A stretch of DNA of 64,000 nucleotides from an uncultured archaeon (GTDB lineage Archaea > Aenigmatarchaeota > Aenigmatarchaeia > QMZP01), in contig CAZSLL010000002.1 in the NCBI GenBank assembly GCA_964607835.1, positions 20,014 through 84,013 on the forward strand, written 5' to 3'. This document shows, one piece after another, positions 9,001 to 46,638 of the stretch. Position numbers and translations under genes: made by a program. How positions within the stretch are numbered: position 1 is the stretch's first letter; each line of letters opens with the position of its first letter. A model generated the notes under the pieces. That model was given only the letters and a program-made list of their open reading frames with translations, made no database searches and was not told the origin of the DNA.

Positions 9001-12000
9001 CTCAACACCACCAACTCCAGCGGCGGGCTGCATTTCAGCTTTGACCCTGGATGCTCATATGCCCTGGGCGAGCAGGACTGGCTGGCGGGCTCTGTGAACA
9101 ATACATGCTACAGCACCCAGAACATGAGCCTGGCCTCCAACCTGACCATTATGGGCGAGATGCTCCAGCACGTGCTCGAGGCCAACTGCTCGGGCAACAC
9201 CACGTGCTACGCAGACGAGAACGTGACCATGCAGGTCAACGTAACAGACGAGTGCGGGGTTGCTGTTCCGGACGCCTCGGTGAGCATGAACCTAACTCAT
9301 GACAGCTACACAATCAACTGCACCCCTCTGGTGAACCAGGGCTCAGGGCTCTACAACTGCACCTGGAACGTCAGCGACTCCCCTGGCGGGAGTTATGACA
9401 TAGAGCTCTTCACCAACCACAGCAGCCACAACGAGAACCTCACCACCCACGAGGACATGTTCTTCAGGCAGGTCCCTCCCTCCCTTCACACAGAGGGCGC
9501 TGCCCCGGGCTCTGCCTTCTGGGCGCGCTCTGCTGACGGAAGCCCGAGGTTCACCTTCTGGGTGAATGTCACTGACGATGACGACGAGGTCACGGTGGAG
9601 CTCTGGCACTACGACAACGAGTCAGGGGGCGACTGGGAGCTGGCCAACTCCACTGTGCTCAATGATGCAGTTGGCTACAATGTCTCACTTTCCCTGGCCT
9701 ACAGCAGCATACCAGGCGACATAGGCTACTGGAACTGGAAGATAAACGTTTCAGATGAGATGGGCGCGGGGGACGGGACCGGGGAGCACGAGATAGAGGT
9801 CCTCAGGAGGAACCTCAACATCTCGCTCTATTACGGAAACGCCTCGTCTGTGCACAGGATAAGCAACACGACCGTACTCTCTGTCATGGTAAAGGACGAC
9901 TACGACAGCTTCTCGGTTACCCAGGGCACTGGCAGGTTCTGGGTGACCACAGACGGAACAAACTACGGTCCTGAGCAGGTTCCCAGCTACACCGGAGGCA
10001 TGATGAACCGCACCTTCAACCCCGACTGCGTTTACCAGGCCGGGGTCCAGAAATGGAAGGCAGGTGTAAGGGGGAGCAGCCTCTACAATGACAGGAACTC
10101 CTCCTCCTGGCAGGTGGACGTGTTCTCAGACCTCTACCCTGAAGTGGCCTATCCATACGGACAGTCATACCCAAAAGGGAATGCAGTCCCGCTCAGCGGG
10201 AGCCTCTCTGACGAGTGCGGCCAGGTGGCCGGGGCCACCACAGAGTTCGAGGCCTGGATAGACGGGGCCCAGCTCACCCCCGAGTGCACGCCCTCAGACG
10301 AGGGCGGAGGCATGTACAACTGCAGCCAGAGCACTGCCACAGCCACCTCGGGCATAAGCGCCTGGCACAACGTCACCATGAACGCATCCAAGGTCTACTA
10401 CATAGCCAACTACACCCTTGAGGAGGACGTCTTCAGGGTTGCCCAGGAGCCCGACCTCAAGAGTCCTGGCGTGAGCCCGCCCACTGACGGCTGGGGCGTG
10501 AACTATACATTCTCTGTCACCGTCAATGACCAGGACCTTGACGACATCGTCAACGCCAGCTTCTGGACAGCCCGGGCGAGTTCAGGGCCCTTTGAGCTCA
10601 GGGGATACCAGAACTGGACCAGCGATCAGGCAGACCACGACTTCTACTATTACCAGGAGTTCACGTGCTCTGACTACACGGACGGGGTCTCCAATTCCGT
10701 TTACTACAAGTTCAACGGCACTGACACCATCAACTTCTCTGACCAGACAGGGGTCCAGACGCTTTCCCTGCAGAAGGATGACGTGGGCTTCCAGAACGAT
10801 GTCGGCGATTCCATCACTATTGACAGGGAGGGTTCTGTGACAGGGCTCCTTGGCATCCAGGTCTATGACGACGACAGGCCCAATGACCCGGTGCTGGGTC
10901 AGGGAATCAACGTTTCATTCTGGTCCACCAGGGACGGCATCAACTACTATGTCCCCATGTCAAACACAACCAACGGCACGGGATTCGCCTTCTACAGCTT
11001 TGGCCCTGACTGCAACTACTCGGCAGGCTCCCAGACATGGCAGGCCGGCACGAAAGAGAACACCTGCTATGGGGACCAGAACCAGACCAGCCTGGGGCAG
11101 TCACAGACCCTCCTCATCCTGGGCCAGCTCAAGAACTACCTGCAGCTTCCATCATCAAGCGACTTCAACGTAACCGACCAGATTGACATAAGGCTGAACA
11201 TATCCACTGACTGCCCTGTGCAGGACGGCCTGCTTTCAGGCGCCACGGTGACCATAAACCTCACCAACGATGACACAGGAAACTACTCGGAGTGCTCCTC
11301 AGTGGATGACGAGGGGGACGGCTGGTACAACTGCACATGGGACTCAACCGGATTCGAGGAGGGCTGGTGGTCAGTGAACGTCACGGCCAGCCTGGCCAAC
11401 TACAGATACAACACCACCACGTGGTCGGGCAGGTTCTACCTGGACAACCTCAACATGACAGCTGGTAACCAGACCGCACACCCAGCAGAGGGCGGCTGGG
11501 GGACAAACTACACCTACAACATTACAATCAGCGATGCCGAGAGCGACTGGGTGACGTGCTACCTCTGGACCAACACTACAGGCTCAGGATGGGTCCTCAG
11601 GGGCTCTGACGTGGTCCAGGGCTCGGGCAACTGCTCCATCGTGGTCTCCGGGTTCTCATGGACAGACGTGGGCCAGACCAATTACAGGTTCGCAATAAAC
11701 GACACCTTCAACTCCTTCGAGACCGACAACTTCACGGGCCCGCTACTGCATTATGACTACGTCACCATAGGGCACTATATAGGCAACCAGAGCAACGTCA
11801 ACAGAAGCGGCATCCAGAGCACCCTCCTCTCGGTGTTCGTTAACGACACTGACTACGGCTCCCCTCGCTCTGGCATCAACACCACGTTCTGGGTCTCTTA
11901 CACTAACGGCTCCTCTGACTACGACTCAGGCGGGACCGAGACCACAAATGCCTCAGGCCATGCAGGATACCAGTTCGGGCCGGGCTGCAGCTACACAGTG

Positions 12001-15000
12001 GGAAGGCACCAGTGGAAGGCCGGGGTCACAGACACGAGATACAACAACACCAACACATCAGAGTACCTGGAGCTTAACATCACAGGAGACCTCCTGCCTG
12101 TCATAACAGAACCCCTTGGCGGGACAGCCGGTCTGGTCCTGCAGGGCCAGAACGTGAGCCTCAGGGCGAGGCTGGACTCTGACTGCGGCTCAGAGGTCAT
12201 GAACGATACCAGGGTATCTTTCATATTCGACAACATGACATCAGAGTTCTACTGCCTTCCGCCAGATGACCAGGGAGACGGCTACTACAACTGCACATAC
12301 AACACCTCCTCCCTGGCTGCCGGGTGGTACAACATGACCTTCAACGCCTCCAGGGAATTCTACAACCCCAACTCCACCACAGAGAGCGGTGCATTCTTCG
12401 TGGAGACCGCCCCGGAGCTGTCCAGCCCGGGTGTGGACAAGCTGGTGGGGGGCTGGGGCGAGACCTTCACCTTCTCTGTTGACGTCACTGACCGCGACAT
12501 GGACACAGTGACCGTGAGGGCCTACTACAGGGTGTTCGAGGACGGAACGGGCTGGGGGGACTGGACCCAGATACTGCCGTCCAACCAGACCTCAGGGACA
12601 GGCAGGACCGTGACCTTCACAAAGAACAACTTCCTCACAAGCGAGATTGGCAACCTCACCTTCAAGTTCAACGCCACTGACGACAACACCAACTCCCCGG
12701 CAGGAACAGGAACAGGCACACAGTACTCTGACGAGGTGGCCTATTCAGGCAACCTGACGCTGGAGAAGGACGACACCATACTTGTATATTATGAGGGCAA
12801 CGAGACCAGCGTCAACAGGGTGGGGAGCGACAGCGTGACCTTCAAGCTCGGGGCCCTGGACGTGGACAAGGGATATGAGTACATCCCATACCTGCTCCAG
12901 GGCCAGGTCTGGGTGACCAGCGCTTTCGGGGTTCCTGGCTCGTACATAAAGGACGGTGACCAGGGATTCGTGAGGAACCTCACCTACAGCTTCGACCCCG
13001 CCTGCCAGTACGGCGTGGGCAAGAAGGACTGGAAGGCCAACTTCACCGGCGACTACCACAAGTCAGCGGAGTCTGATGAGTTTAACGTGACCATTAACTC
13101 CGAGTACACTGCCTCCATAGAGTACCCACACGGCCAGAGCTTTGACAGGGAGACGGATGACATACCCTTGAGCATGAGCCTTGACGACGCCGCCGGGTGC
13201 GGCCTGGTGACAGGGGCCACCACAGAGTTCAGCGTGAACGGAAAGGGCAGGGTCTGCGACGGAACTGACATGACAGACGGGCTCTACAACTGCACGGTCA
13301 ACCAGGCCCAGGTGTCCTCCTGGGACTACGGCTGGTACAATGTAACCGGCAACGCCACCAGGGAATACTACCCAGAGGACGTGAACGACACATATGAGGA
13401 CGCCTTTTACCTGGCATCCAGCCCTCTGCTCCAGAATGAGCAGCTCTCATACACCTCTTTCTGGGGGGACCAGGGCAACTTCAGCGTAACCGTATACGAT
13501 GCAGACAACGGCTCAGTTACCGTGTACCTCTACAAGAAGCTGGATGTGGGTGGCGAGTGGGTGCTCCTGGGTTCTGACTCCTGCGTCGGCTGTGACAACA
13601 GCCCGGTCATAACAATAAGCCACGACTTTGACTGCGGTGACATAGGCACCAACTACTACAAGTTCAACGCCACTGACAACTGGGGATACAGCGACGCGAC
13701 AGGTGAGAACGACAACCCATTCACCCTGCTCAAGGACAACAGCAACGTTTTCTACTACACTGACAGCGAAATGACAGTGGACAGGGAAACAGGGTCAGTC
13801 GAGCTGGCTGCTGAGTTCACTGACACAACCCTGAGCGAGCCCGTCCAGCCCGGGACCAACGGAACCTTCTACATCACATACGACGGGGTGACCATGATAG
13901 AGCTCAACAGGACACAGACCAATGCCTCGGGCCATGTCTCCTACATCTTCAACCCCAACTGCACCTATGAATCCCTGCCCCAGGAGTGGATGGTCAGGCT
14001 TGAGGACGAGGCATGCTACGTTGAGGGCCAGACCCCCGCACCCAACTACACCGTGCACTCCATGGGCAACCTCAAGATAAACATGGACACCCCCTACGAG
14101 GGCGAGGAGTTCCAGACCACCAGCCTAATAGACATAAGGTTCAACGTGACCTCTGACTGCCCGCTCGGGGGGAGGGTGAACGACACTTACACAACCATAC
14201 AACTGGTCTCGCCCAGCGGGGACTGGGAGACCTGCTCCAGGAACAACGAGTCAGGCCCGAACAACGGCCACTTCAACTGCACATGGGACTCCACTGACAA
14301 GGAGACCGGGGACTGGGGAATCCAGGTCAACGCCTCCTACGCAAACTACAACGAGAACAGGACCCTTTTCGCTGGGTGGATAAACCTCACCAACGCAGCC
14401 CCTGCCTACAGCAACGAGCAGGTCGACCCGGGCGAGTCAGGATGGGGCGACACCTTCAACTACAGCGTTGACGTGGCTGACGCAGACGCAGACAACGTAA
14501 ACTGCACGCTCTTCGTCTCAACCAACGGGGGAAGCAGCTGGGAGGAGAAGGGTTACATGCTCGTGACAGGTGGCAACAGCAGGTGCTACGTGGAGGTAAG
14601 CGACTTCTCCTGCGGGGAGATGGGAACAGACAACCAGTACTACTTCAGGCTCTCTGACGCCTACATAGAGGTTGACACCCCTGCTTACGACGGGCCCAAC
14701 CTCACCGTGGACTCTGTCAGTGTTCAGCATGTTTTCGGGGATCAGGAGGATGTTAACAGGTCAACAGAGACAATTGGCCTGAGCGTGCTCTTCACAGACA
14801 CCACCAAGGGCCAGGCCCTGGAGCCTGTCACCGCATATCTCAATGTAACCAGGAACGGCCAGGACTACACGTTCCTTGACTCCAACGCCACGGCATCAGG
14901 CTACGCCAACTTCAGCTTCTCCCCTGGCTGCGCGTTCAACGCCACAAAGCATCACTGGAACATGCTCATAAACGATACATGCTTCGAGAACACGACAAGC

Positions 15001-18000
15001 GGAGAGCTCAACATAACGGTCATGGGCCGGTACGGCATAGAGATTCTCTCGCCGCTTGGTGAGGAGTACCTCAGGGGAGGCAACATCACTGTGGACCTGA
15101 ACTTCAGCGAGGAGGGCTGCGGCGAGCTCATTCCAGCCGACCTCCCCACCACCAGGACCATAACCATGGTGAGCGACTACCAGGGCACCAGCTTCTCGTG
15201 CTCCCCTGTCCAGCACAACTCATCAGCCACCTACAACTGCACGTTCAACACCTCACTCAACCCCGGCGAGATGCCTGCCAGGGGCTACTCAATAACCGTA
15301 TTCGCCAACAGCCAGTACTTCAACCCGGAGAACAGGACCACACAGTACTCCGGGAGGACGAGCGGGTTCTGGATAGACACCGCGCCCGAGCTCGCGTTCC
15401 CCGGGCTCAACACCACGGGCTATGACGGGGACACCGGAAGGAACGGGTCCTGGTCAGAGGACAGGAACTACACAATTACAGTGACAGACGAGGACGGCGA
15501 CAACGTTGAGGTGTCCTACTGGAGGCGCCAGTGGACAGGGTCCTCATGGGGCTCATGGAGCAAGATAGACACAAAATACCCCAGCGCTCCGATTGGCCAG
15601 GAGCTGGTGTTCGGGGAGGACGGGCCAACGAGCTTCTTCAACCGGCCGTCGGACTACGGGACATGGCAGTTCAAGTTCGAGGCCGAGGACGGCGACACCT
15701 GGCCAGAGGCCGGGGGGACAAAGTACTACTCCAACACCACCGGCATGAACTTCACGGTGGAGAAGGACGACATGCTCGTTGAGTACTATGAAGGCAGTGA
15801 TGTCAGCAATTGGAGGAACGGGACAGACAGCATCGTCCTGTCAGCAAAGGTATTCTCGGTCGACCAGAACAGGTACCTGGCAGACGGGGAGGCCCAGGCC
15901 ATGGTGTGGGTCACGAAGGACGGCTCGGGCTACGAGAACATAACAACGCTATGGGACCCTCCCCTGACAGATGATGACGGCTTCATCAACCAGACATTCA
16001 ATTTCACGTGCGACTATGACGTGGGGGTGCAGTACTGGAGGATACAGGCTGTGGACAACACAGACTATAAGGACACCAACAACACAGGGAACCTCAATGT
16101 CACGGTCAGGACCTACCTCAACGGAAGCATAAACCTTCCGGACTACCAGGTATTCAGGAGGACCCCTTACAACAACGTGACATTCAACATGACGGTCTGG
16201 GATGAGTGCTCGGCAGTTGACAGCCCCGGCAACCTCCTGCTGGAGATAGACGAGTCAGGCCCTGCCCCTCCCATGCAGAGGTCTGAGGCCGCAATAGAGC
16301 AGCACGGCTCAGGAGTCTACTACTACAACTGGTCCACAGGCACCAGCTCTCCAAACATCTCCAACACAGGATGGTACAACCTCACCTTCGAGATGACCAA
16401 GCAGCATTACCAGAACCTGCACGTCCTCAAGCCTGACGGCTTCATGCTTGCCACTGCCCCTGAACTCCAGTACTTCGGGGACAGCGTTAAGTCCACCGGC
16501 GCCCCTCCCCAGACAGACGGCTATGGCGGGTGGGGAGAGGAGTACGAGTTCCAGTACTGGTGCAGGAGCCCTGACGGACTGGAGTTCAACGTGAGCGTGT
16601 GGTACAAGCACAACCAGTCATCCCAGTGGACAGATCTGGGAACCCACCCATGCGTATCCACGAGCAACTGGAACTCCACTGCATATGACCAGTTCACGAG
16701 CGCCGAGTACTTCTCGTGCTCTGACATAACCCATCCCGGGGACAGTGCCTCCTTCAAGGTCAACGCAACAGACGAGTTCGGGTTCGGTGACGAGCTGGAT
16801 GTCGTGAACTACACCATAACCAGGGACAACGTCACCGTGACCAGGGTGTCATCATCAGGCATAACCATAGACAGGGAGGGGCAGGACACCGGGCTTTTCG
16901 GTTTCGTGGTCAATGATTCTGACCGCTCTGGTGAGGCCGTGGGCTCAGGGGTCTCAGGGGTGGTCTACGTGACCACGGACGGCACGAACTACAACACCGC
17001 CTACTACAACACCACAGGAACAGGCTCCAGGATGTACTTTGATTTCGACCCTGACTGCAACCACGGATACGGCGGGCAGGACTGGCTGGGCGGCGTATAC
17101 CAGAATGACACCTGCTATGTCCAGAGGAATATGAGCTCGAGCTCCTCGCTTACAGTGAGGGGCCAGCTCAAGAACTTCATTGATGTTCCCTCTCACAGGG
17201 AGGTCTACAACGTCACTGAGCAGATTCCGGTGAGGTTTAACACAACCTCAGAGTGCTCCTCAGAGGGCATGATATCAGGCTCATCCACATACCTCAGCCT
17301 CGGCGCGCCCAACGGGAGCTGGTACCCCTGCACGCCGATTCTGGACGAGGAGGGCGCTGAGTCAGGGTTTTACAACTGCACCTGGGACTCCAGCGACATG
17401 CAGGAGGGCAACTGGAGCATAAACATGACCTCCTGGAGGGCGAATTTCCTCAGCAACATGACCATTCTCAGTGACTGGTTCTGGCTCGAGAACCTCAACT
17501 CCACGAACGAGAGCATCCATGTCTCCCCTGCCCGTGATGGCTGGACCATGCCCTACAACTTCACTGTTGTCATCAACGACTCTGACTCTGACCACATAGA
17601 CTGCTCCCTGTATATAGACACCTATGACGGCTCTGGCTGGCAGCTCAGGGGAACCGACTCACTCTACAGCCCCACGGGCGTGGTTGACATGCAGTGCTCT
17701 GTGATGGTCAGCGACTTCACAGGGGAGGACATCGGGCCCAACACGTTCAGGTTTTTCATTGAGAACGGTGAGCCCACCAACGCATTCAACACCACCAACA
17801 TATCAGGCCCGACACTCGAGCCCAGCAACATTACAATAGAGCACGTGTCAGGCAACATGAGCTACGTGAACATCTCTGATGAGGTCCCGGGCTCCAGCGC
17901 CCTGCTCTCGGTGTTCGTGAACGACACTGACAACCAGTCCCTTGCGGACAATGCAAACGTGACATTCTGGGTATGGCACAACCAGACCTCAATGGCCCCT

Positions 18001-21000
18001 GAGTTCGTCAACGCCACCAACGCCTCGGGCTTCGGCAACTACTACCTCAACCCCGGCTGCAGCTTCACCCCGGGCAACTGGGAGTGGGTTGCCGGGGTGA
18101 CTGACGGGTACTATGAGAACAGGAACACGAGCACCCTGAACATCACGGTCCTCGGAACAATAACAAACACAATACTCGAGCCACTTGGCACAGAGCACCT
18201 GCGCGGCACCAACATAACCATCAGGTTCAGGCTCAACGACAGCTGCGGAAGGAACATAACAGGGGCGCAGGACATGAACATAACCCTCACCCACGAGGAC
18301 ACTGACCAGGGCTTTTCCTGCGACAACATACAGGAGGAGGGCAGCGGCCTCTACAACTGCTCCTTCAACACCTCGGCCAACCCCTCTGAGCTGCCTGCCC
18401 AGGAATACAGCATCAGCATATCCTCGTCCAAGCCCTACTACAACAACGACACCAGGCAGGTTGCCTTCGTGGGCGACACCTCGGGCTTCTTCATTGGCAC
18501 GCGGCCTGTGCTGGAGGGCCCCAACGTCTCGGCCTCGGGCGGGGACTGGACCGTGGGCTCGTGGTCAGAGGACTGGAACTTCACGGTAAACATAACCGAC
18601 GAGGACGGCGACACGGTCTTCCTGACCCTGTGGAGGAGGCAGTGGCAGGACGGGACTGGCTGGGAGGAATGGGAGGAGGTGGACACAAAGCAGTACAGCA
18701 ACACAGACCAGACCCTTGGCTACATAAAGGACAGCGCCTACACCTCGCCGGCCAGCCTGGGCAACTGGTCCTTCAAGTTCAACGCCACTGACAGCGGCAA
18801 CCTGCCACTTTTCGGCGGGCCTGAGTTCAACTACACTGCTGACGGGTTCAACTACACAATAGAGAGGGACGACCTGGAGATAACCTACTATGCAGGCTCG
18901 GGCATGGACCTGGACAGGAACGGCTCGGCATCGCTCATGCTCTCGGTCCTGGTGTACGACTCTGACCAGAACAGGTACCTGACAGGCGGTGAGGCTGACG
19001 GCTACCTCTGGATAACCAGGGACGGCTCCAGCTACGAGCAGGAGAACAGCATCTCCACCCAGAATAACGGGTTTGTCAACTATTCATTCAACCCCGGATG
19101 CCCGTATGACGTAGGCGAGCAGCTCTGGAAGGTGGGCATAGAGGGAAACAATGACTTCAAGGATGTTAACTCCAGCGTGTTCAACGTGACCCTGCACACC
19201 TTCATAGACGGCAACATCACCCACCCACACGGCCAGACATTCTACCAGGGGGCCCAGATACCCATGTGGTTTGACCTTTACGAGGGGGACTGCGCTGGCA
19301 ACCCCCTCACGAGCCCGGCCACCATGCAGCTGGTCATCAACTCAACAGACGGCTCTGCCACGTACTACGTGCCCATAGGCCAGATAAACCAGTGGGGCAA
19401 CGGGACCTACAACCACACCTGGGACTCAGCAAGCAAGGCCACCAAGTTCTTCAACATCACAGCAGAGCTCACCAAGCCCTATTATTATGACGCCGCTGTT
19501 ACCAGGGAGAGCGCGTTCGCACTCACCACTGCCCCTGAGCTCCAGTCACCGAACTACTACTCCACGAGCGACCACGCCTCCAACGACGGGGGATGGGGCG
19601 AGCTCCATGCATTCCAGGCCAACTGCAGGGACAGGGACGATAACAACGTCACCCTGAGGCTCTACTGGAGGAAGACACCTGACCACGGCTGGGAGTACCT
19701 TGACCAGCAGACCTGCAGGGGCGTGAACTACCAGACCTACACATTCGAGGACTACTACTTTGACTGCAATGACATAACCCCGTCCGGGTGGAACTCCCAG
19801 TTCAAGCTCAACGGCACAGACTCCTACAACTTCAGCGACGAGACCAACCCCGAGAACTTCACCATAACCATGGACGATGTCCAGGTGAACTACATCACAG
19901 GCTACAACCTTGACATCAACAGGGAGGGCTCAGCGAGCGGGCTCTTCCTCATAATGATAAACGACTCTGACAAGGACTACGAGGGAGTGGGCCCGGGCAT
20001 CAACGCGACCACGTGGGTCAGCACTGACGGCTCCAGGTTCCTGACCAACTACACCAACACGACCGCAGAAGACTCCATGATGTACATGTACTTCAACCCT
20101 GACTGCAACCACAGCACAGGTGAGCAGGAATGGGTCTCAGGTACCCTGGATGACACGTGCTACAAGGACGTGAATATGACCGGGGGCTCCAGGGATTTCC
20201 AGGTCTACGGCCAGCTCAGGAACAACCTCGGTATGCCCGGCCACCTAGAGACCTTCAACGTCACAGAGAACGTGAGCATAAGGTTCAACGCTACGTCTGA
20301 CTGCTCTGCAGAGGGAAGGGTAAGCAACGCCTACACCACTGTCCAGCTCCAGAATCCCTACGGAGAGTACCAGCCCTGCGCGCCCGTCATCAACGAGACC
20401 GCGCCGAGCCAGGGATGGTACAACTGCACCTGGGACTCCACTGACCAGAGGGAAGGCTTCTGGTCAATCCAGCTGAACTCCTCCAGGGCCTACTTCAGCA
20501 GCAACCAGACTCTCTACCAGGACTGGTTCAGGCTCGAGAACCTCAACGCCACGTGGACAGGGCTCCAGGTGTCACCTGCAACAGACGGGTGGACAAGGCT
20601 CTACAACTTCTCTGTGAACATAACCGACCCTGACTCTGACCTTATCAACTGCACCCTTGAAATCAACAAGTACGACGGCAGCGGATGGGTTGCACACGAC
20701 AACATGACCCTTTACAACTCCACAGGGATAAGGGGCGAGGTGTGCTGGGTAACTGTCTGGAACTTCACCGGCGATGACATCGGACAGAACAGCTACAGGT
20801 TCTACATCCAGAACGGCGAGCCCGCCAACTACTTCAGGACAGACAACTACACAGGCCCCACCCTCCAGGTTGCCAACACCTCCCTGTCCTTCGCCACCCA
20901 GAACAGCACAGAGGTCAACATCACAGGGGATTACGAGTACCTGGCCATCCTCCTCAACGACACTGACAACGTGACAGCAGGCCCGTGGAACCCGCCCGGG

Positions 21001-24000
21001 GTCAACGTGACCTTCTGGGTCTCGCACAACCAGTCCTCTGTTGACCAGGGCAACCTCACCCAGACCAACGGGACAGGCCACGCCAACGTATGGTTCGACC
21101 CCGGCTGCTCATATTCCGTGGGCCCACAGCAGTGGTGGGCCAACGCCACTGATTCCCACTACGAGATGAACAGGACGCAAGGAAACCTCACTGTCATAGT
21201 CCATGACGACCTCAACGTCAACATCCAGAAGCCCCTTGGCATGGAGTACCTCAACGGCACCAACGTGACAGTGAGGTTTAACTTGACAGACAGTTGCGGT
21301 AACCTCATAGCAGGCGCCAACATCGCCATAAACATGACCCACGAGGACTCTCTCCAGGAGTTCTCATGCGGCCCTGTCATAAGGGAGGAGGACCAGGGAG
21401 GGGCAGAAGGATGGTACAACTGCACCTTCAACACGTCATCCATACCATCCCAGGAGTACACGCTTACCATAACAGCCAACAAGACCTGGTACAATTTCGA
21501 GAGGCACACTGACCCATATCTGGACGGTTCAACGGGGTTCTTCATAGAGACCCTTCCGAGGTTGTCCAGCCCCATGATAAACACATCAATAGACGGTTAT
21601 GAGTCAGGGGGATGGGGCGAGCACTTCAATTTCTCTGTTGAGGTCACTGACGATGACGGTGACTCTGTCACGGTCTCCCTCTACAAGAGGATCTGGACAG
21701 GCGCCGGGTGGTCGGCCTGGTCAGAGGTGACCAGCACACTGTTCTGCTCACAGTGCGAGGATACCCTGGTCTACTTCGCAGAGAACCCTGAGACCTACAA
21801 TCCCTCCACTGACCTTGGAACCTGGCAGTTCAACTTCACTGCATACGATGACGGCTCTGCACCGAGGATTGGCGGGACCACCTACACCACTCAGGTCATG
21901 GGATACAACTACACGGTGGAGAGGGATGACATCACCATAAACGAGTTCATCGGAGACGGGCTATCTGTCTGGAGAAACGGCACGGATTCAGTCACACTGA
22001 CCAGCAAGGTCAATGACACTGACCTGGGCTCGCTGCTGGAGTACAACGACATAGACAGTGAGGGTATAATCTGGATAACCAAGGACCATGCCGATTTCCT
22101 GCTGGTGGACAGCTCCCTCTCCACTGACGAGAACGGTAACATGAGCTACAACTTCAACCCTGATGGGAATTCCGAGAGCTGCGAGTACGACGTGGGTCCG
22201 CAGTACTGGAAGATGGGAACCAGCGGTCACCAGGACTACAAGGACGTCAACTCGAGCAGCAGTACGGTTGTCCTGTGGTCCTTCCTCAACGGCACAATAG
22301 AGACCCCGCAGGGAGAGCCCACCAGGAGGGGCATAGACCCTGTGAACGTAACCTTCAATGTGTTTGACGAGTGTGACAACGGCGTTAGCCCGCTCAACAA
22401 CACCATAATAAGGTTTGCCCACACGAACGAAATCTACAACATAACCTCAGGCATAACCGATTACGGAAACGGGACGTACTTCTATTCATGGGACACAACA
22501 GGTCGCCACCTTGGCATGTACAACCTCACAGTAGAGCTATACAAGGACTATTACGTTGGCCTTAATATGACCCTTGAGGACGCCTTCATGCTCGGTTCAT
22601 CTCCTGAGCTAAGCTACCCGCCCACAAACTGGTACTACTCAGACGATGACGGTGGCTGGGGCGAGGACTGGACATTCAGGGTGAGGTACAGGGACGGCGA
22701 GGTCGGGGACAACCTGAACATATCCCTCTGGAAGAGGCGCACGCCAGATGATCCCTGGGAGCATGTCATGATGAAGAACTACACAGTGGAATCAACCACA
22801 TGGAGCTCCTACCTCTACTACGAGGTGGATGACTTCACCTGCGGTAACGTGACGCCCCCTGGCTGGGAGTCGCAGTACAAGTTCAATGTCACTGACCAGT
22901 GGGGCTTCGACTACGAACATGACACAGAGAACTTAACCATATACAGGGACAACGTGAGCTTCCTCTACAGGGCAGGCGATGACGCCGGGATTGACAGGGA
23001 GGGCTCTGATATTGGGAGGCTGGGCATACTGGTGAGGGACTATGACAGGTCCAACATGCAGGTCGGGGAGAACGTGTCCGGAAGGTTCTGGATAACCACG
23101 GACGGCTCGAGCTACGAGACCGGTTTCGTCAACCAGACCAACTCCTCGGGAGAGATTAGCCTCTACTTTGACCCCAACTGCACCTACAGGACAGGGGTCC
23201 AGGACTGGGTGGCAGGGACATACGGGGACGAGTGCTACTTTGATGAAAACTTCTCTGAGTTCAGCCTCACGATATATGGACAACTCAAGAACGGCATACT
23301 ACTACCTCCATACCAGGAGGTCTACAATTTGACAGAACCTGTTCCCATCAGGGTGAACATGACCTCTGATTGCCCTGGTCAGGAGGCCTCGATTAACGCA
23401 ACCTCACTAACGGTCCAGCTCCAGAGCCCTTACGGTGCCTGGCAAAGCTGCTCGCCTGTCGCCAACGAGACCCCACCCAGCGAGGGGTACTACAACTGTA
23501 CGTGGGACTCCACTGACCAGAGGGAAGGCTTCTGGTCCATACAGCTGAACTCCTCCAGGGCCTACTTCAGCAGCAACCAGACTCTCTACCAGGACTGGTT
23601 CAGGCTCGAGAACCTCAACGCCACGTGGACAGGGCTCCAGGTGTCACCTGCAACAGACGGGTGGACAAGGCTCTACAACTTCTCTGTGAACATAACCGAC
23701 CCTGACTCTGACCTTATCAACTGCACCCTTGAAATCAACAAGTACGACGGCAGCGGATGGGTTGCACACGACAACATGACCCTTTACAACTCCACAGGGA
23801 TAAGGGGCGAGGTGTGCTGGGTAACTGTCTGGAACTTCACCGGCGATGACATCGGACAGAACAGCTACAGGTTCTACATCCAGAACGGCGAGCCCGCCAA
23901 CTACTTCAGGACAGACAACTACACAGGCCCCACCCTCCAGGTTGCCAACACCTCCCTGTCCTTCGCCACCCAGAACAGCACAGAGGTCAACATCACAGGG

Positions 24001-27000
24001 GATTACGAGTACCTGGCCATCCTCCTCAACGACACTGACAACGTGACAGCAGGCCCGTGGAACCCGCCCGGGGTCAACGTGACCTTCTGGGTCTCGCACA
24101 ACCAGTCCTCTGTTGACCAGGGCAACCTCACCCAGACCAACGGGACAGGCCACGCCAACGTATGGTTCGACCCCGGCTGCTCATATTCCGTGGGCCCACA
24201 GCAGTGGTGGGCCAACGCCACTGATTCCCACTACGAGATGAACAGGACGCAAGGAAACCTCACTGTCATAATCATGGGAAGCCAGAACAACACCATAACA
24301 AGCCCCTCTGGCGGGGAGTATCAGAGGGGCACCAACGTGACAGTGAGGTTCAGTCTCGAGGATGCTGACGGGTGCGGGAGGAACATACCAGACGCCTCTG
24401 TGAACATATCCATGGTGAGCGAGAAGACAGGGCAGGAGTTCTACTGCGCTCATGTCAGCAACGAAGGCCAGGGCTGGTACAACTGCACGTTCAACACATC
24501 CCTCAATCCGGGTGTCATGCCGGCAAGATGGTACAACCTCTCCATCTCCACAGAGAGGCAGTTCTACAACAACCACACAGAGAGGTATGACCACGCCTTC
24601 TGGATTGAGACCAGCCCTGTTCTCAGTCTGGACAGCTACAGTGTGGACCCTCAGGAATCGGGCTGGGGTTCTGAGTTCAATTTCACTGTCAATGTCACTG
24701 ACGAGGACGGCGACACGGTAACTGTCAGGGCATATGAGCGGGCCTACGGGGACTCCACCTGGAACCTGCTAATAGCATCAGGTGGTGGCGACTACTCCCA
24801 GTGCAGCGGTTGCGACAATCATACAATGACCTGGACCAAGTCAGACTATGCCTGCTCGAGCCTCGGGGGCGAGGACAACATTACCAGGGAGTTCTACTTC
24901 AACGCCACTGACAACAGCGATGTGGACGAGTTCCCTGAGGAGGACATGGAGGCCACTGACCCCATGAATTTCACCCTTCTCAAGGGGCCGGCCAGCGTCG
25001 ACCTTGTCCAGGGCAACGCCACCTGGATATACAGGCCAGGTGGCTCTGAAAGGCTCATGATAAGGATTTACGACATTGACAAGGGCGGATACGCAACCGC
25101 CCCCAACCAGAGGGTGTACTTCAACGTCACCACTGACGGCCAGGGCGGCGGCTGGACGCCGAGCTCGCAAAAGTTCTCCAACCTCACGGGCTATGCCTAT
25201 TATGACTTCAACCCCGGGTGCTCGCCCAAGTACGAGACCGGAACCCAGGACTGGAAGGCCTCCCTGGTGGGGGCCCAGTGCTACCAGGACAACACCTCTG
25301 ACCTCTTCGAGGTATACATCTGGACAGACCCGCTGAACATAACCATGGACGTGCCTGACGGTGAGCATTACAGGCGTGCCGTGGACAACATAACGGTCAG
25401 GGCCCACGTGAATGACGAGTGCTCGGGCTCTGCGGGCAATGTGGAGGATGCGACACTCCAGTTCGGGGCCCAGAACGAGCTTGCATGTGTGTACACATGC
25501 ACCCAGCCCAACACCCTTGAGGAGGGCTCGGGTTGGTACCGCTGCAACTTCACCTCGAGCCAGACCTCGGGCTGGGGCGACTCGTGCCTTGGCGACTACA
25601 ACACCACCGCTGTTGCGACAAAGGCCTACTACAACACCTCGGGCACGTTCACTGATCAGGACTCCTTCTGGCTGAGCGAGGTGCCCCAGCTGTCCTGGGC
25701 GCCCACTTGGCACACGGCAGACACCTCCAATGCATGGGGCTCTGGCCACCACTTCTACTACAGGATAAAGGACGGGGAGTCATCCATAGGGGACTCTGTG
25801 GACATATACTTCTGGAAGAGCTACGGCTCGCCAGGCAACTGGACCCTGCTGGGCAACACCACGATCTCGCCGCCCACCCAGGAGAACCACCAGTTCGACA
25901 TCACCTTCAACTGCAGCGACGTGGGAACCAACTACTACAAGATAAACGCCACAGACATGTGGAACGACACCAGCACCACGGCCACGAACAGCTTCGACAC
26001 CCTGAGGAACAGGCTTTCGGTCAACTCCAGGGTGTTCTCAATCGATTCATCTGTGGACAGGGAGGGAAGCGGTTCAGCCCACCTTGCCATGTGGTTCTTT
26101 GACCTCGACGCAGGGGAGACCATAACAGAGGAGGGCATCAACGGCACCATATGGGTAACGGTCAACGGAACCGACACCTCCACCTGGGACAGCGGCATCC
26201 AGAACCAGACCAACTCAACCGGCGACCTTGGGGCATACTTCGACCCCGGCTGCGCGCCGCTCTACATGCCCGGCCTTCACTACTACAAGGGCGGGATTCC
26301 GCTCGGGCAGGACGCATGCTACTACACCCCGGCGAACAGCACCAACCAGAACATGAGCGTGAAGGCCCAGCTCAAGGTCTTCCTAGAGAGGCCTGAGGAG
26401 GGCAACACCAGCATTGTGGGCGACCTCATCCCGTTCAGGTACAACCTGACCTCTGAGTGCGGGGACCTGGTCAACGACTCCACGACAACGATAGAAATGG
26501 GAGACTACGAGGGGGTCTGGGAGTCCTACGTGCCCAGCAACGAGGGGGACGGCTGGTACAACCATACCCTTGACACGGGCTTCCACAAGGGGGGCTGGTG
26601 GGACATCAGGATAAACGCCTCAAGGTCATGGTACTACCGGAACACCACGACCTGGTCTGACTGGTTCTACCTCCAGAACACACCGCCCACCATAGACAAC
26701 GTCTCCGTGAGCCCTGAGGAGGGTCCCTGGGGCGGGGTCTACGAGTACAGCGTCAGGATATGGGACCTTCAGCAGGACAACGTGACGTGCGAGCTCTGGG
26801 TCTCAACAGACGGCGGTGCAAATTACTACATGAAGAACTCGACTGAGATAATATGGGGAAGGGACTGGTGCAACCTCACGGTTGGGGACGCCCTTGACGG
26901 CACGGAGTTCAACTGCTCTGACATGGGAACAGACAACAGATTCTACTTCAGGATAGACGACAAGACAAACATCAACTACACTGACAACATAACTGGCCCC

Positions 27001-30000
27001 AACCTCACGGCTGACACGGCCATGATAACCTACATCCAGGGCAACGGCTCTGTGATAGACAGAGACGACACCTCCCCGGACAGCGAGGCCCTCTACAGGG
27101 TCTACGCCAACGACACGGTCAGGGTGGGCCCTGTGCTCGAGGGGACTGACATAACATTCTGGACCACCTACAACATGTCCCTCTTCGACGACGGCAACTC
27201 GAACCAGACCAACTCGAGCGGATTTTCCAGCTACATGTTCAACCCCACGTGCTCTGAGCCAAAATACGAGGTAGGCCCCCAGGAATGGAAGGCAGGGGTA
27301 ACGGATTCGTGCTACGTCCCTGTGAACACGAGCGACAACTACTCCCTGGAGATATGGGGGAGCATATACGGGACCATAGACAGGCCGAACCCGGGCGCCA
27401 ACACCTTCCAGAGGGAGGCCTCCAACATAACAGTGAGGGGCTACGTGGAGGACGACTGTGTTGACACCAAGACCGGGGTCAACGTGTCATTCAACTTCAC
27501 CCACCTCGACACAGGGAAGTCATACGACTGCCTGTACTACTACACAGAGGCCATCATATACTACAGCTGCGAGCGCAACTCAACAGGAATGAGAGCAAGG
27601 TGGTACAACAACACCATGACCTCCACCATGGAGTACCACTACCCGAACACCACGACAACAGAGTCCAACTTCGAGGTCTTCACCAAGCCCGTCATGCTCA
27701 ACCCCACTGCCCTGACAGACCCGGGCGGGTGGGGCGAGAGGTTCTACTTTACCGTGAACCTGACTGATGAGGACTATGACGAGGTCACGGTCAACCTCTA
27801 CGCAAGGAAATACGGGGAGACCGAGTGGGGCCTTCCAAAGAACGACACCTCCACAGACACAGCCCTCGGGGAGATACTCAGCCTCTCCTTCGAGGACGCC
27901 TACTGCCCGAACATAGGGACCTGGGAGTTCTACTTTGAGTCAGAGGACAACCGCACCCCAATGGGCATGACCAATGACACCGGGGCGGTCAACTTCACCA
28001 TAGAGAAGGACGATGTCTCAGTCGTATACGAGCAGGGCGACGGGTTCTACGTCTGGAGGAACGGCTCTCACAGCAGGAACCTCATAATGAGGGTATGGGA
28101 CAACGACACCAACGACTGGGCGGGCTCTGGCGTGAACTCCACATTCTGGGTTACCAGGAACTCCTCGTCAGGGACCTGGGACCCGGGCAAGTACGAGGTC
28201 AGCAACGCCTCCAGTCACCTTGTCTACGGCTTCACGAGCGAGATACCTGAGTCAGAGTGCAGCTACGAGCTCGGGCCGCACTACTGGAAGGCAGGGACAG
28301 GAGGAATCAACGATGACATGTGCTACAAGCCCGTGAACTCATCCTCATACAACCTCTATCTCAACTCCACGATGTTCCTGACCATACACGAGCCCTACGG
28401 CCAGGGAATACTCTGGGGCACACCCCTCAGCGTGGTGGGCTTCATCGAGGACGACTGCAAGCCGGTTGAGAACGTATCGGTGAGCTGGGAGTTCATCAAG
28501 GGCCAGAACTCATGGACAAGGACCCAGGACCAGGCCAACCAGAGCCAGGGCTGGTACAACTACACCTGGACCGAGACCCAGAGGAACGTGGGCTATTACA
28601 ACATAAGCATGGAGGCTGACAAGGAGTTCTACGGTCCCAACACAACCCTCAAAGAGGACGCCTTCTTCATAGCCCTTGCCCCGGACATACTCTCAACAGG
28701 CATTGACAAGCAGCTCGGGGGCTGGGGCGAGACCTATGACATATGGGTTAGGGTCACTGACGCAGACAACAACTACGTCAACATTACCCTCTGGAAGAGG
28801 CTCCTCAACGAGACAAGCATGGAATGGGGCGACTGGGAGCTCGTGGACCAGAAGTGGCAGGACCAGCTCGGCGCGACATACCTGCACTACTACGAGTACT
28901 TCACGTGCGCTGACATGGGATGGAACCAGTTCAGGTTCAGGGCAGTGGACGAGTTCAACTTCAGTGATGACACCAACAAGACCGTTATAAGCGACTCCCT
29001 CGAGCTCAAGAACAGCTCCCACGCTTTCGGAGCAATTCACGACGCCTCGGGCCAGGCAGACACGGGCTTCGGCCACACAGAGCAGGCCGCGCACTCCGGA
29101 TACTACAAAGAGTTCAACATCACTGTCCACAACCTGAACGGGACTGCAATGTACTTCGACCTCGAGGTGGGAGGGGTCCAGGTGGCCCAGAACCAGAGTA
29201 TGGATGACGGCCAGAACGCCACCATAGACGCCATCGCATCAGTAGGGGCGTTCACACTTCCCGGGGGCACGGATGTCAACCTCACTGTGAGGGACGGCCA
29301 GGGCGGTCCCGCGGGGGCCAATTACACCGCCTACCTCAACACCACCCAGGCCTATCAGGAGTACTCATACAGCGACTACTACTACCTCCCCTACGACACC
29401 CAGTCCTTCAACATCACGGTCCAGAACCACAACGCAAGCACAATGTACTTCGACCTGAGGGTGAACGGGCAGTGGGTGGCCAGGAACCTGAGCGCCGGGT
29501 CAGGGCAGAACGCGAGCTATGATGCCCGCAGGCAGGTAGAGATGGACCTCTCCACTGGCACCCAGAGCATACTCATCAACGTCACCAACAGCTCGGGCTC
29601 CTCGGCTGTCTCGGACTTCTCGGTCTACCTCGACTACGTCACAGGCGTGCACGAGTTCTACCTGCAGGAGGACAACGTCTCGGTCTACCTCTGCGACGGT
29701 TCTGTCTGCTCTCCTGCCAGCAACACGACCGTGAGGAGGGAGTCCTCTCAGGACGCCTACCTGAACATAAGGGTGAGGGACACTGACTTCGGGAGCTACC
29801 CGAGCGGTGTAGACACCAGGTTCTGGGTGACAGAGGACTTCTACAACTACACAGAGTACCTTGACTGCACCACCGCATCAGGCGGGTACTGCGACGAGGA
29901 CTATGACCCTGACTGCGATACGGTCGCAGGGGTCCAGAAATGGAAGGTCCAGACCACAGACTCATGCTACCAGCCCCTCAACACCTCGAGCAAGAACCTG

Positions 30001-33000
30001 GTTGTCTACAGCCAGCTCTACGTGAACTACACCGAGCCCGGCCAGGGCCATGTCCTCAACAGGAACGTGACCTATGACCTCAACGTGACTGTCAATGACG
30101 ACTGCGGGATGTACATAAACGACTCCAGCGTGACCTGGCAGAACGAGTCCTACAGCATCATCAACTACACTGACAACGGCAGCCTTGGCCACTACGCCAC
30201 TGAATGGACAATACCAGAGCCATACCAGCGCGGGCCTGACACCCTGACCATAAACGCCACAAAATCCTATCACGACCTGGGAACCAACACCACAGACATT
30301 CTGATTTACGGGTGGGCCAGCATAGATGCCATGTGGCCGGGCAACGGGACAGAGTACGATGCAGGGGCACTCAGCTCCTGGATAAACTGCCATCTCATTG
30401 ACGTCAACACCAGGCAGTCGATTGAGAGCTACGACGTGGGATTCTACAAGAATGGCGTCTACAATGACACTGACTCCACCAACGCGCAGGGCAACGCCAG
30501 CTGGTTCTGGTACACCGAGTACGAGGATGCCGGCTACTACAACATCTCCTGCCGCATTAATGATGAGGACGTGCTCTACTACAACGTTTCCGTGGGCGAG
30601 AGGCTGAGCAACATAACGGTCAAGAGGCAGCTCATAATCGACCAGATAGAGCTGGACAATTCCACAATATACAGGAACGACAGCTATGACCCCCACCACA
30701 CTGAGCTCAGGGTTCACGTCAACGACGCCCAGATAGGCAACGCCACTGACGCCAACGTGAGCTTCTGGAACAGCACCGCCCCCCTCGGAAACTGCACCAC
30801 AGACCAGTACGGGTGGTGCAACATAACCTACAACGCCAGCGACACCGCCCAGCCGGGCAACTACACAATAATCATAAACGCCACAAAGGTCGGTGTGACG
30901 GACTCAGAGACCGAGGAGGCCTATGTCAAGGTCAAGGGCGTGCTGATGCTGGACATCCTCTCTCCGGTGAACGAGAGCACGCACGCCAAGACAGGGAGCG
31001 TTACCCTTAACGTCAACGTCACTGACGAGGCCGGCAACATAGTCTCTGGAACAGACGTGGAGTGGTGGAACGAGACCTCCATGCTCACTGACCTCCAGAC
31101 ATATCCCAACTTCCCGCTGGTGAGCCAGGAGGCGGGCAACCGCACCATAACGGTATACTCGAGCGAGGACTACTATGACTCGGCCAGCGAGTACGCCATA
31201 ATAACCATCCAGGCCGTGGCTGATGTATATTACATGTCACCGCCAAACATGAGCCTTCTCTCCTACCCCAACGCATTCGACACCCTCTGCAGGGTCAGGT
31301 ACGCCCAGGCGGCAGGCGGCGGCCCGGTCGAGGACTACGAGGTCGAGTTGTACTACTACTGGGAGGACGCTGGGCTGCCCTGGATTTACATCAACAACTT
31401 CACCACCAACAGCACCGGCTACATCACACATTCCTTCAGCCCGTCCCAGAAGGGATACCTCAACCTCAAGTGCAACATAACCGACAACACAAGCAGGCTC
31501 ATCCAGGCAGGGGTCTCAGAGGCACAGGGATACGTAAGGCTCCAGGACGTCATAGAACCGAGCATAACCAACCTCTCCATAGTGCCCAATGCAAGTATAG
31601 AGGCAAACCTCAACTTCACCAACATCACGGCAAACGTGACAGATGACGTGGGCATATACTCTGTGTGGGCACAGATATTCCTGCCCAACGGGACCAGCAT
31701 AAACGTGACCATGACCAACGAGAGCCTTGGCGGGGACCTCTACAGGGTCTCTTATGTGCCTGAGCTCCACGGCCTGCACAGGGTCAGGGTCTGGGCGAGG
31801 GACCTGGGACCCGAGTTCAACGACGCGAGCGAGTGGGCAGGGTACTTCGACGTCTGGGGCAAGATTAGCGGCCTCATCGAGCTCAACGACACTGTGCTCA
31901 TATCGGGAATCACCTACACCCAGGGCGGCCAGTTCAATATGTCCGTAAACTTCACCAACCTCGGCCCGCCCAGCGGATACAGCATTGAGCTGAGGTCACT
32001 GGACGACCCCAATGACACCCTTGTGTTCAACGACACCTACCAGAGCCTTGGAAAGATGTACGTGAACGAGACCTACACCTGGCCCGTGACCGTTGACGTC
32101 CCCGCGGCCACGCCGCCCATCATAATACGGTCTGTGATATACGCCAACTGGACAGACCCTGACCTCACCCAGAACTCCACCATGAACTGGAGCACTGTGT
32201 ACATATCCTCCAACCCGCTACTGGACATAGTGGAGGACTCGCTCACAAATACCACCCCGCACGACAGCGAGCTTCTGTACGTGGGCAGGTTTACGGTGTA
32301 CTCCTCAGGCAACGATGCTGTGGACGACATTGAGCTCTACATGGTCGGGGGCAACCTCAGCACCATGTGCCCTGAATGCGAGGTGGACATAATCCCGTCC
32401 GGGTGGGGAAGGCTCGAGGCAGGCGGGACCTTCAACTCGAGCATATACGTGGACATCCCAGCCGGGCAGGACCCCGGGCAGTACTACACCATCGTGAGGG
32501 CAGACCCGGTCAACACGGAATACGATGACATGGTGCTCACGCTGAACATCCCTGAGAACAAGACCTGGCTCAGGACCCCGTCGAGCTTCTCCAGTGCTGA
32601 TGAGCCCATACTGGCCCTTCTGAACACCACCGACGTCATAGGCAACATCACGGCCACCAGCATAGGCAACGCCAGGATTGTCCTCAAGGTCTACAAGACC
32701 GAGAACGGCTCTGACCTCGTGACCATGGACCCCGAGTACTTCGAGCTGGGCAAGCAAGTCATAAGGAACTCCACAATAAGCTACGTGGTTCCCACCTCAA
32801 AGCCCAAGGGCATGTACTATGTAAAGCTCCTGGTAAGGAACAACACGGCAGACCCCCAGCAGTACGTCACAGACCTCTGGCTCAACGTAACTGACATACC
32901 GCCGCTCATAGAAAACGTCACAGTGGACCCGCTCATATTCGAGGCAGGCTACGAGAACGTGAGCATAGCGGCTGACATCACAGACAACTTCGATGTGGAC

Positions 33001-36000
33001 GAGGCATGGATTAAGGTAATCCAGCCCGACGACTGGCACTACACCAACGACTCCAGGATGATACACAACTCAGGGGGAAGTCCGGATGACGGATACAACC
33101 ACACTGAGCCCCTCATGAGCCAGTACGAGCCACAGCTGCTCTTCTTCAACGTGACCGTGGTCAACAACGATGCCTCCTCCATGGCCATGAACCTCACGGT
33201 AAACGGCCATCTTGTGGCAGAGGACGTGAGCATCCCCCCGGGAAGCAATATCTCTGTTGATGCTGTGGCCAACAACGCCACATTTACCATGCCCGGGGAT
33301 CAGGAAATCAACATTAGCCTTGATGGCAACTACACCTACATGGTCTGGCTGGACTACTCCCTGCTGGACGTTAGCTCGTACATCGAGTACATGAACGACA
33401 CAGAAAAACCCCATTACACCTCCATCTATACATCTGGCCAGGAGGGATTCCATGAGCTCTACATATGCGCCAACGACACAACCGGCCTGGGGGGTTGTGT
33501 GCACTACCAGCTCCTGGCCGCCTCCACCACCCCGCTTTCCATGCTCACCAACATCACCGAGGTCAACATAACAAACATAACCTTCTCCAGCTCAGACTAC
33601 TTCACATTTAACTTCACCGTGGAGCCCCAGTGGGCCAGGGCCCTGGACCTCAACCTGAGCCTGGTCATGGAGAACGGCTGGACCGCCTCCCCAGATTTCA
33701 TAAGGGCAGGGGATGTCCTCAAGGTCGAAAACCACACCAACGAAACCGAGGTGGGCGTGGCCTCGGGCACCCTCCCGGGCAATTATTCGGTCACTCTCCT
33801 CGCCAACTGGACCGAGCTCAACGGATGGACCAACGGAACCAACCAGACCAGCATACTGGTCATGGTCCAGGCCAACCCCTCCATCATAATCGTGGAGGAC
33901 TCCCTGAACTACAACATACGGGGAGGGAACTCTGACAACAGGACCATGAACCTGTTCAGCAACGGAAACGCCAACGCCACAAACGTGACCTACAACTGCA
34001 CCTGGGGCGAGGTGTGCCAGAACTTCACGGTGTCCTTTGACCCTGTCAATATCTCGGTCATGCAGCCCGGGACCACCCAGGGGGTCAACGTGACCATTGC
34101 CGTTCCCACGCTCTACGAGGCCAGCGAGACCGGGTACCCTGGCATAGTGGAGGTCACCGAGGCCAGCGGCTCCTCTGACACAGTATACATAGTGGTAACC
34201 GTGCCCATCAACCTCTCCTGGGAGCACGACCCCGAATCCCTTATCGTCAACCTGAGCCACGACACCTCAGGCGTGCTGGGGGAGATAGACGTCAGGAACA
34301 TAGGCAACGCCCATGTGCTACTGGAGGTGGTGCAGTCAGGCAATGGGACCCCGTACATGCCCCTGGACAGGGATGAGCTCTCCCTGGATATCCTGGAGAG
34401 GGACACCATAACCGTGAACTACAGCCTGCCCTACCTCGCGAACGTGGTGACCTACCAGAGCATGATAAGGACAGAGAACCTCACAGCAGACCCCACCTTC
34501 AGGCAGACCATGGTCACGGCAAATATCTTCCCGTTCTCCATGAACCTCACCTACCCCACACGGCAGAATCCGGTCATGAACGTGTCCGGCAACAGCACAG
34601 TGCACGCCCTCATCAACGTGACATATGCAGGAGAGCCCCTCAACACGAGCGTGGCCTTCAATCTCACCCTGTTCAACGCAACAGGGAGCTGGCCCCTCAA
34701 CATCACCAACGCGACATACTCGAACTACACCGGGCTCTGGAACGTGACCTTTGTGGCGCCCAACATAAGCGAGAACAAGGGATATGACCTCAACGCCAGC
34801 GCCGTGTACGAGCCCGCGAACATATGGCTCCATGACATGGAGCAGAAGGCCGTTATTTACATAGACCGGATCGCCCCTTATGTGGCAATAGACGTGGCCC
34901 CCAGGGTGCCCCAGAACTCCACTGCATACATATACATCAACGTCACTGATTCAGGAGGGGTCTCCAGGGCAGAGCTCAACATGTCCTTCCCTGACAACTC
35001 CACCACGGGATTCCAGGCCGAGCTTGTTAGCAAGAGCGGTGACCTCTACCGGTTCCTGGTCAAGACCAACCTCACAACCCAGATAGGCATGTACTACCTC
35101 AACGCCACTGCATGGGACCTCTCTGAGAACTGGAACTACTCAGAGGCCACCTTTGAGATATACCCGGCAGTGGTGTGGTCAGGCAACTCGGTGGACATGG
35201 AGAAGATACACAGGCCGCCCTTCAACCTCAATTTCACTTTCTGGCTCTCCGGCACCTCTTTCGAGGCCTACAACTTCACCACAGAGCCCGCGGGCCACTA
35301 CAACGAGACCCTTGACATGAGGCCCTATGATATTGGGGTGGGCTTCAGGAACGAGACCCTGACCATGTACGAGGCAGACCTGGTGCAGGACGTTTACAAC
35401 CCCGTGCTCTTCGGAAAGATACCAAGCGTCAAGCTGCCGAGGAAATCCCTGAAGGGATACTATATATACACCACCCCGGTCAACTACAGCTACGCAGGCC
35501 TGGTCATTGACTGCGAGGAATGCTATATTGACGGGGAGTGCAAGGTTTCTGACTTCACCCTTCAGAACCTGGGGCTCTACCGCTGCGACGCCTGGCAGCC
35601 CATGGAGGGATGCACAGGCACATGGTCTGCCATGGACAGCAGCGTGAACGCCAGCCTCTATACCATATCAGTAAACTCCACCTCCATGACCGGGGCATAT
35701 GTCCTGGCCGAGTGGCTGTGCGGGGACGGCGAGTGCGAGGAGGACAAGGGGGAATCCTTCGCCACCTGCCCCACTGACTGTGAGCTGGACATACCAGAGG
35801 AGCAGGAAGGGGGCGAGAGCGGCGGTGGCGGGGCCTCAGGCGGCGCGGCAGGAGGCGCGGCAGGCGGAGCAGCAGGCGAGGAGATATCCCTGTCAGGCCC
35901 TGTGGAGGTCAAGACCACACTCATTGACATAATCCTGGGCCAGGGCGAGTACGAGATACACTCCATGGAGATAGTGAACAGCCAGCCGACCTCCATATCC

Positions 36001-37758: not shown

Positions 37759-37791
37759 CAAGGGAAATCATGAGCATTAGCAGGGAGCGGT

Positions 37792-37821
37792 CTGGCGCCG
37801 CGCAAACATGACTCGCGCCAG
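37792..37821 (+). other. Inverted repeat (7-bp stem CTGGCGC/GCGCCAG, 16-nt loop) 34 nt after the giant-gene stop
   Basis: Seen directly in the sequence. No oligo-T tract follows, so a terminator role is uncertain. Confidence 0.3.
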
Positions 37822-37855
37822 TCGCATAGGAGCGTATGCAGGTGTCAGAGATACC

Positions 37856-37926: not shown

Positions 37927-37953
37927 GGTTGAAAGGAAACGGAGGAGATTCGA

Positions 37954-46602: not shown

Positions 46603-46638
46603 GAAATCACACTACATTAGTATTGTCCTGACGGGCTT

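Follow-up and report, generated by a model that had tools for sequence, protein, structure and literature searches.

We describe an open reading frame (ORF) of more than 12,585 amino acids (aa) in a 64,000-nucleotide (nt) stretch of contig CAZSLL010000002.1 (assembly GCA_964607835.1, positions 20,014 to 84,013), hereafter the window, in which two modules of a highly diverged tandem array share a tract of 729 identical nucleotides. The array is made up of about 23 tandem subunits of ~340 aa, which are grouped by threes (A, B and C) into superunits of ~1020 aa, and the tract is common to subunit B of superunit 4 (B4) and subunit B of superunit 5 (B5). The best explanation, and in our judgement very probably the correct one, is that short-patch gene conversion has acted repeatedly between these two modules, and hence that one module pair has undergone concerted evolution. 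The evidence that bears on this reading is the pattern of identity along the two superunits, the saturation of synonymous sites outside the tract, a parallel tract in the closest relative found, the orthology of the flanking subunits between the two genomes, and the domain structure.

An exact tract within diverged superunits

When the window was compared with itself, nucleotides 20470-21198 proved letter-identical to 23542-24270, at an offset of exactly 3072 nt (1024 codons), with both copies in frame and in register within the single giant ORF. An earlier note on this DNA, made from the letters alone, had reported the same offset, together with a 780-bp tract of 100% identity that held an exact run of 728 nt. 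The offset is correct and the exact run is real, if one nucleotide longer than had been stated; the 780-nt span (20419-21198) is not perfect, since it matches its copy at 776 positions (99.5%) and carries four synonymous or near-synonymous mismatches at 20427, 20430, 20466 and 20469. A blastn search of the window against itself returned 20338-21278 and 23410-24350, 94.8% identical, as the sole strong internal repeat, the second-best internal match being 67% identical. The identity of the tract is far beyond chance, because all other exact repeats in the 64-kb window are shorter than 30 nt and the background between units is about 50% nt identity.

The divergence of superunits 4 and 5 outside the tract was determined by codon-aware alignment, which left 678 aligned codons once the tract and its edges were excluded. 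Over these codons, protein identity between the two superunits is 35% and DNA identity 50%; the figure of 50-60% protein identity given previously for the units is reached only when the tract is included (52.5%). At conserved residues outside the tract, four-fold degenerate sites match in 32% of cases, and codon usage would yield 33% by chance; inside the tract, agreement at such sites is complete (113 of 113). Over the other ~2340 nt of each 3072-nt period, the units show 40-60% nt identity, with saturated synonymous sites. A sharply bounded block of near-identity thus lies between much diverged flanks that keep the same register, and synonymous sites are identical within it and diverged beyond it, which supports the earlier proposal of recent intragenic gene conversion.

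The left edge of the tract is graded, with 79.5% identity in both aa and nt over 44 codons; the differences closest to the tract are synonymous, and the single-base differences resolved there are spaced 3-36 nt apart. On the right, identity breaks off at a single position and gives way to a mosaic flank, the beginning of the next beta-sandwich domain. Amino-acid identity in this flank is 50%, but where residues are conserved their four-fold sites agree in 7 of 7 cases, and an exact island of 23 nt lies at 21256-21278. The mosaic may be the remnant of an earlier conversion that reached further and was later overlaid by a cluster of amino-acid replacements. Inspection of the tract edges revealed no evident shared DNA motif as a possible site-specific signal. 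GC-biased conversion was considered and rejected, as the G+C content at third codon positions of the tract (0.81) is in line with that of the gene as a whole (0.80) and of the flanks (0.73-0.82). Two antisense ORFs of 169 aa, at 20572-21081 and 23644-24153 on the minus strand, are identical to each other; they are a product of the tract duplication and bear no sign of being genes. The coordinates of these and other features are collected in Table 1.

Table 1. Positions of the tract, its surroundings and related patches (window coordinates unless a locus is named)
Feature	Coordinates	Strand	Partner	Remarks
Tract copy 1	20470..21198	+	23542-24270	codons 6824-7066, subunit B4; exact identity at offset 3072
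Tract copy 2	23542..24270	+	20470-21198	codons 7848-8090, subunit B5; exact identity
Graded left edge	20338..20469	+	23410-23541	~80% identity, falling gradually leftwards
Right edge and mosaic flank	21199..21282	+	24271-24354	abrupt break at 21199
Superunit 4	19396..22467	+		aa 6466-7489, A4-B4-C4; phmmer subunit map, superunit alignment
Superunit 5	22468..25509	+		aa 7490-8503, A5-B5-C5; phmmer subunit map, superunit alignment
Subunit array	5473..28950	+		about aa 1825 to 9650
Giant ORF	1..37758	+		reading frame already open at base 1; 5' end lies before the window
Transmembrane helix	36577-36645	+		single, C-terminal, giant ORF
Walker A of DUF87/HerA-type ATPase	36814-36837	+		giant ORF
L006 patch	10462-10728		13257-13523	95-99% identity range
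L006 patch	12579-12687		16481-16589	95-99% identity range
L005 patch	4662-4767		8187-8292	95-99% identity range

A parallel tract in a relative

The closest relative found to cover the tract is L001, a metagenome-assembled genome (MAG) from NCBI that is matched by three Joint Genome Institute (JGI) contigs (L008, L009 and L010); scans of genome contigs and metagenome contigs yielded no relative closer than 66% aa identity over this region. L001 possesses an exact tract of its own, 1005 nt (335 codons) in length: 9848-10852 recurs without change at 12953-13957, which is 3105 nt (1035 codons) further on. This tract occupies the B modules homologous to B4 and B5, with a right edge at most 2 codons from that of the window and a start 51 codons further upstream in homologous coordinates. 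Two AlphaFold2 (AF2) models, for which the input alignments were made from paralogs within the window, reached predicted local distance difference test (pLDDT) scores of 81 and 87, and in these each subunit is all-beta and consists of three beta-sandwich domains resembling immunoglobulin (Ig) or fibronectin type III (FnIII) folds. Mapped onto the models, the L001 tract comprises exactly three domains, one subunit period. The exact tract of the window begins inside domain I, so that the copy in B4 spans the C-terminal part of that domain and then domains II and III, and in both genomes the last strand of domain III is where the tract stops. The structure seen in L001 recurs in L008, whose sequence is the same, and in L009, with 2 single-nucleotide polymorphisms (SNPs) relative to L001; it agrees across separate assemblies of the relative that come from different samples and differ by 1-2 SNPs.

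The genes of L001 are saturated at synonymous sites with respect to the window genome. Within the tract, window and L001 are 66.5% identical in aa and 72% in nt, and 44% of four-fold sites are identical, the same divergence as in clearly orthologous distal parts of the gene. Within each genome, B4 and B5 of the window are 100% identical and the corresponding L001 modules, Bx and By, 99-100%. The flanking C subunits behave otherwise: C4 and C5 of the window are 34% identical and Cx and Cy of L001 32%, whereas window C5 is 51% identical to L001 Cy and at most 39% identical to all other C subunits, and the C6 subunits of the two genomes are 64% identical. Window C2, C3 and C4 are each 40-42% identical to the single L001 Cx, and the orthology of superunit 4 is less clear. 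Because the flanking C subunits are orthologous between genomes, the B4/B5 superunit pair predates the split of the two lineages. A pair older than the split whose B modules are nevertheless identical within each genome, and closer there than to their orthologs, points to concerted evolution. The earlier suggestion that concerted evolution is ongoing gains support in this way, as a relative at 66% aa identity has homogenised the same module pair next to downstream C subunits that remain orthologous.

The B module is also the best-conserved part of the central array between species, at 66% aa identity as against 28-51% for A and C subunits. The arrays of window and L001 are collinear on both sides of this central part, and the number of B-type superunits is six in the window and four in L001; the region of difference covers aa 3415-9497 of the window (nt ~10243-28491) and aa 2017-6066 of L001. 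This comparison suggests a gain of superunits in the window lineage or a loss in that of L001, and since superunit number differs between lineages, unequal exchange has occurred in the history of the gene. Variation in length, which the earlier note had raised along with antigenic variation, is thus seen between lineages only, and nothing that we tested supports antigenic or phase variation.

More distant Aenigmatarchaeota loci carry patches of 71-73% identity, and one patch of 97%, between adjacent superunits. In L002, L003 and L004, the loci checked in this respect, the patches map to the homologous B region, and those at 71-73% may be older conversions. In low-GC relatives within the Aenigmatarchaeota (L005 and L006), short patches of 95-99% identity connect units ~2.8-3.9 kb apart; two of the three listed in Table 1 are truncated where the locus or contig stops.

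Origin of the identity

Gene conversion would account for these observations if a break or stalled replication fork in one B module were repaired from the other B module, on the same or the sister chromosome, with the copying of at least 729 bp, or ~860-940 bp if older and partly decayed edges are counted. The pair would have been homogenised independently, or continuously, in each lineage. The right edge, at the junction of domain III and the next domain, would act in both lineages as a stable and self-reinforcing barrier, at which divergence past the edge would block heteroduplex extension, chimeric domains would be counter-selected, or both. The left edge in the window may represent the erosion of a once longer tract, because the L001 tract begins further upstream. 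In the tuf genes of Salmonella, the conversion walk averages ~500 nt in either direction and goes no further than the homology does (PMC5485169); the length of the present tract fits such experimental conversion tracts from bacteria.

Several points weigh against this reading. The exactness of the identity and the copy number are those of the assembly, in which a few true differences between near-identical copies can be lost to bubble-popping or polishing and further X-T copies can be hidden by a T-X-T loop. One contig of the relative (L010, Ga0307438_1000027) ends at 10852, exactly the last base of the L001-type tract, which marks the spot as hard for assemblers. The two copies are identical and the scans yielded no closer relative over the tract, so that either copy may have been the donor, and transfer is presumed to have been non-reciprocal. 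Finally, the patches of 71-73% identity in the most distant relatives could mean stronger purifying selection on the B module.

The first two of these points could be pressed further, such that the identity would be an artefact of assembly, in which bubble-popping or polishing levelled out copies that were only near-identical, or a longer perfect tandem array of the form [tract + 2343 nt]n was collapsed to a single loop; with such a collapse, the gene would really be longer and have more copies than the assembly shows. The tract is longer than typical short reads, both here and in L001, and the only other assembly of this population that was found (Logan, SRR7048225) is broken into ~4-kb contigs, of which one of 4.2 kb, 99.98% identical to the window, does not reach the tract. 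Assembly cannot, however, render sequences of 50% identity identical. The copies would have to be ~95% identical or more beforehand, which would itself require conversion. Moreover, the assembler kept the copies apart where they differ, as the single-base differences of the left edge attest, the copies are in frame and each runs into its own unique homologous flanks, and the same topology recurs in the separate assemblies of the relative. We therefore consider an artefact unlikely as the source of the pattern, and because assembly effects need near-identical copies first, they would alter details such as exactness and copy number and not the conclusion.

A single unequal crossing-over, to which the earlier note had also pointed, or a recent tandem duplication of a superunit, would explain why the offset equals one superunit period and would accord with the differing superunit numbers of the two lineages. 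After one such event, identity at this offset should extend over the full period of 3072 nt or more, and it is limited to 729 nt; synonymous sites in the remainder of the period are saturated, and the clear L001 ortholog of the C subunit of superunit 5 implies that both superunits are old. A single event of this kind is accordingly very improbable as the cause of the tract. Less credible still is that selection, acting on the protein or an embedded element, maintains the identity, or that the identity reflects a system of variation based on a diversity-generating retroelement (DGR) or on cassettes. The conservation of the B module between species speaks for selection, but the complete match of four-fold sites inside the tract, set against chance-level matching outside, lies beyond the reach of selection at the protein level. 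An embedded element finds no counterpart in Rfam and tRNA scans of the whole window, which gave no matches. A DGR, which would show adenine-specific mismatches between a template and a variable repeat of ~100-150 nt near a reverse transcriptase, was rejected, as the tract is free of mismatches over its 729 nt and the mismatches at its edges comprise all substitution types at all codon positions and are not adenine-specific; no reverse transcriptase domain was present among the ORFs scanned, which did not include every small ORF. For a cassette system, the 64-kb window holds no third copy and no silent cassette.

A putative giant surface protein and its place among known systems

The giant ORF carries Laminin_G_3 and DUF2341 domains in its N-terminal part, as identified with Pfam, and closes with the transmembrane helix, a poly-lysine stretch (KSKKKKKSR) and a P-loop ATPase of the DUF87/HerA type. 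The array between them is highly diverged as a whole (25-40% aa identity). Foldseek matched the modelled domains to complement macroglobulin (MG) domains, to the FnIII domains of RbmA and to the adhesin extenders 4p99 and 6xi3. Pfam matched no family in the two superunits scanned, and the protein encoded by the tract had no match at E<=1e-3 among 5.8 billion proteins, a collection from which the repeat part of these giant proteins seems to be absent. A literature search on giant archaeal proteins found nothing specific, and one on the run accession SRR7048225 gave no result. The giant protein contains 5.1 N-X-S/T sequons per 100 aa, and homologues of its C-terminal part, up to 87-88% identical, are named by NCBI as Aenigmarchaeota (DPANN) proteins. 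We conclude that the product is a putative giant glycosylated and membrane-anchored surface protein of a DPANN-type, Aenigmatarchaeota-like archaeon, with surface exposure predicted from its topology and the taxonomy taken from the names of homologues. In the models it has the architecture of the tandem-Ig-like adhesin class, a long array of beta-sandwich extenders, and adhesion may be its function; the N-terminal Laminin_G_3/ConA-like lectin domains are only suggestive of binding.

Some further observations concern the C-terminal region. Homologues of the last 417 aa are frequent in DPANN MAGs, many of them annotated as 'partial', and a huge, presumably extracellular beta-sandwich array is here fused in one ORF to a putative translocase-like cytoplasmic ATPase. 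In the relative L015 (ENA ERZ23498458, scaffold_3501), gene calling separates the ATPase from the giant gene at ~9850-9870, where the division falls on a run of Ns (a scaffold gap) and is probably an artefact. The C-terminal domain of L015 is 88% identical to that of the window; the locus is ~70-73% identical in nt and covers only window positions 26236-39425, so that the tract is not reached.

The neighbouring genes, among them a KaiC-type ATPase and prenyltransferases, are archaeal in flavour. Directly downstream of the giant ORF, the interval 37954-50742 encodes a 649-aa coiled-coil protein with weak SMC/Rad50-like matches and two large putative surface proteins, one of 1961 aa on the plus strand (NPCBM_assoc and Invasin_D3) and one of 1367 aa on the minus strand (Laminin_G_3 and NPCBM_assoc), after which come an FG-GAP protein and a sulfatase. 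Two adjoining sensor genes on the minus strand (dCache/HAMP and PAS) share a 109-nt match of 79% identity (60644-60751 vs 62494-62600).

In giant bacterial adhesins such as Bap, Esp, alpha-C and Rib, SasG and Aap, the RTX adhesins (MpIBP, 4p99) and the 'large adhesion protein' extenders (6xi3), most or all repeats are near-identical and ~80-130 aa long. The archaeal protein resembles them, also in its fold matches, as a very long surface protein built of tandem Ig/FnIII-like beta-sandwich extenders, in which identity of repeat DNA would stem from intragenic recombination and repeat number varies between lineages. It differs from them in that the array is diverged, with a single identical module pair and a period of 1024 codons, and in being archaeal, rich in sequons and terminated by a transmembrane helix and a cytoplasmic ATPase; its repeat region, moreover, has no Pfam match, and no membership in a sequence family was found. 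Antigenic variation by pilE/pilS, vlsE and VSG likewise involves gene conversion on the gene of a surface protein, with silent donor cassettes that diversify an expressed copy. In the giant gene, by contrast, conversion would homogenise two expressed modules, and silent donors are not seen in the 64-kb window.

A close parallel in process is provided by tufA and tufB of Salmonella (PMC5485169), where paralogous coding sequence is homogenised non-reciprocally over a contiguous tract of ~0.5-1 kb that halts at the end of homology, and where paralogs within a genome are closer than orthologs between genomes. The partners described here are, unlike the tuf genes, modules of one gene that lie 3 kb apart between flanks diverged to saturation, and only 3 of the 9 beta-sandwich domains per superunit are homogenised; the host is an uncultured archaeon, in which machinery of the RadA type would presumably carry out the exchange. 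The tract adds one more instance of a well-known process, from a gene family that is unusual and little characterised, and discloses no new mechanism.

As such, it offers a clean natural case of concerted evolution that affects a sub-part of a repeat unit within one gene. It also indicates that conversion boundaries can persist over long evolutionary times, because a sister lineage has independently homogenised the same module up to the same right boundary at a domain junction. For metagenomics, exact repeats of 0.7-1.0 kb in these genes constitute a predictable hazard of breakpoints and copy-number errors in short-read assembly. The giant repeat genes of uncultured DPANN-type archaea would still be undergoing remodelling, both by conversion and by the gain or loss of whole superunits. 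A more far-reaching interpretation, which we regard as unlikely, is that the B pair is actively kept identical and not just by passive, homology-driven conversion, with a recombination boundary at the junction of domains III and I conserved since before the split, because two identical modules are needed, for example for bivalent or homotypic binding of a host ligand. If that were so, Aenigmatarchaeota-like archaea in general would maintain conversion as a feature of these genes.

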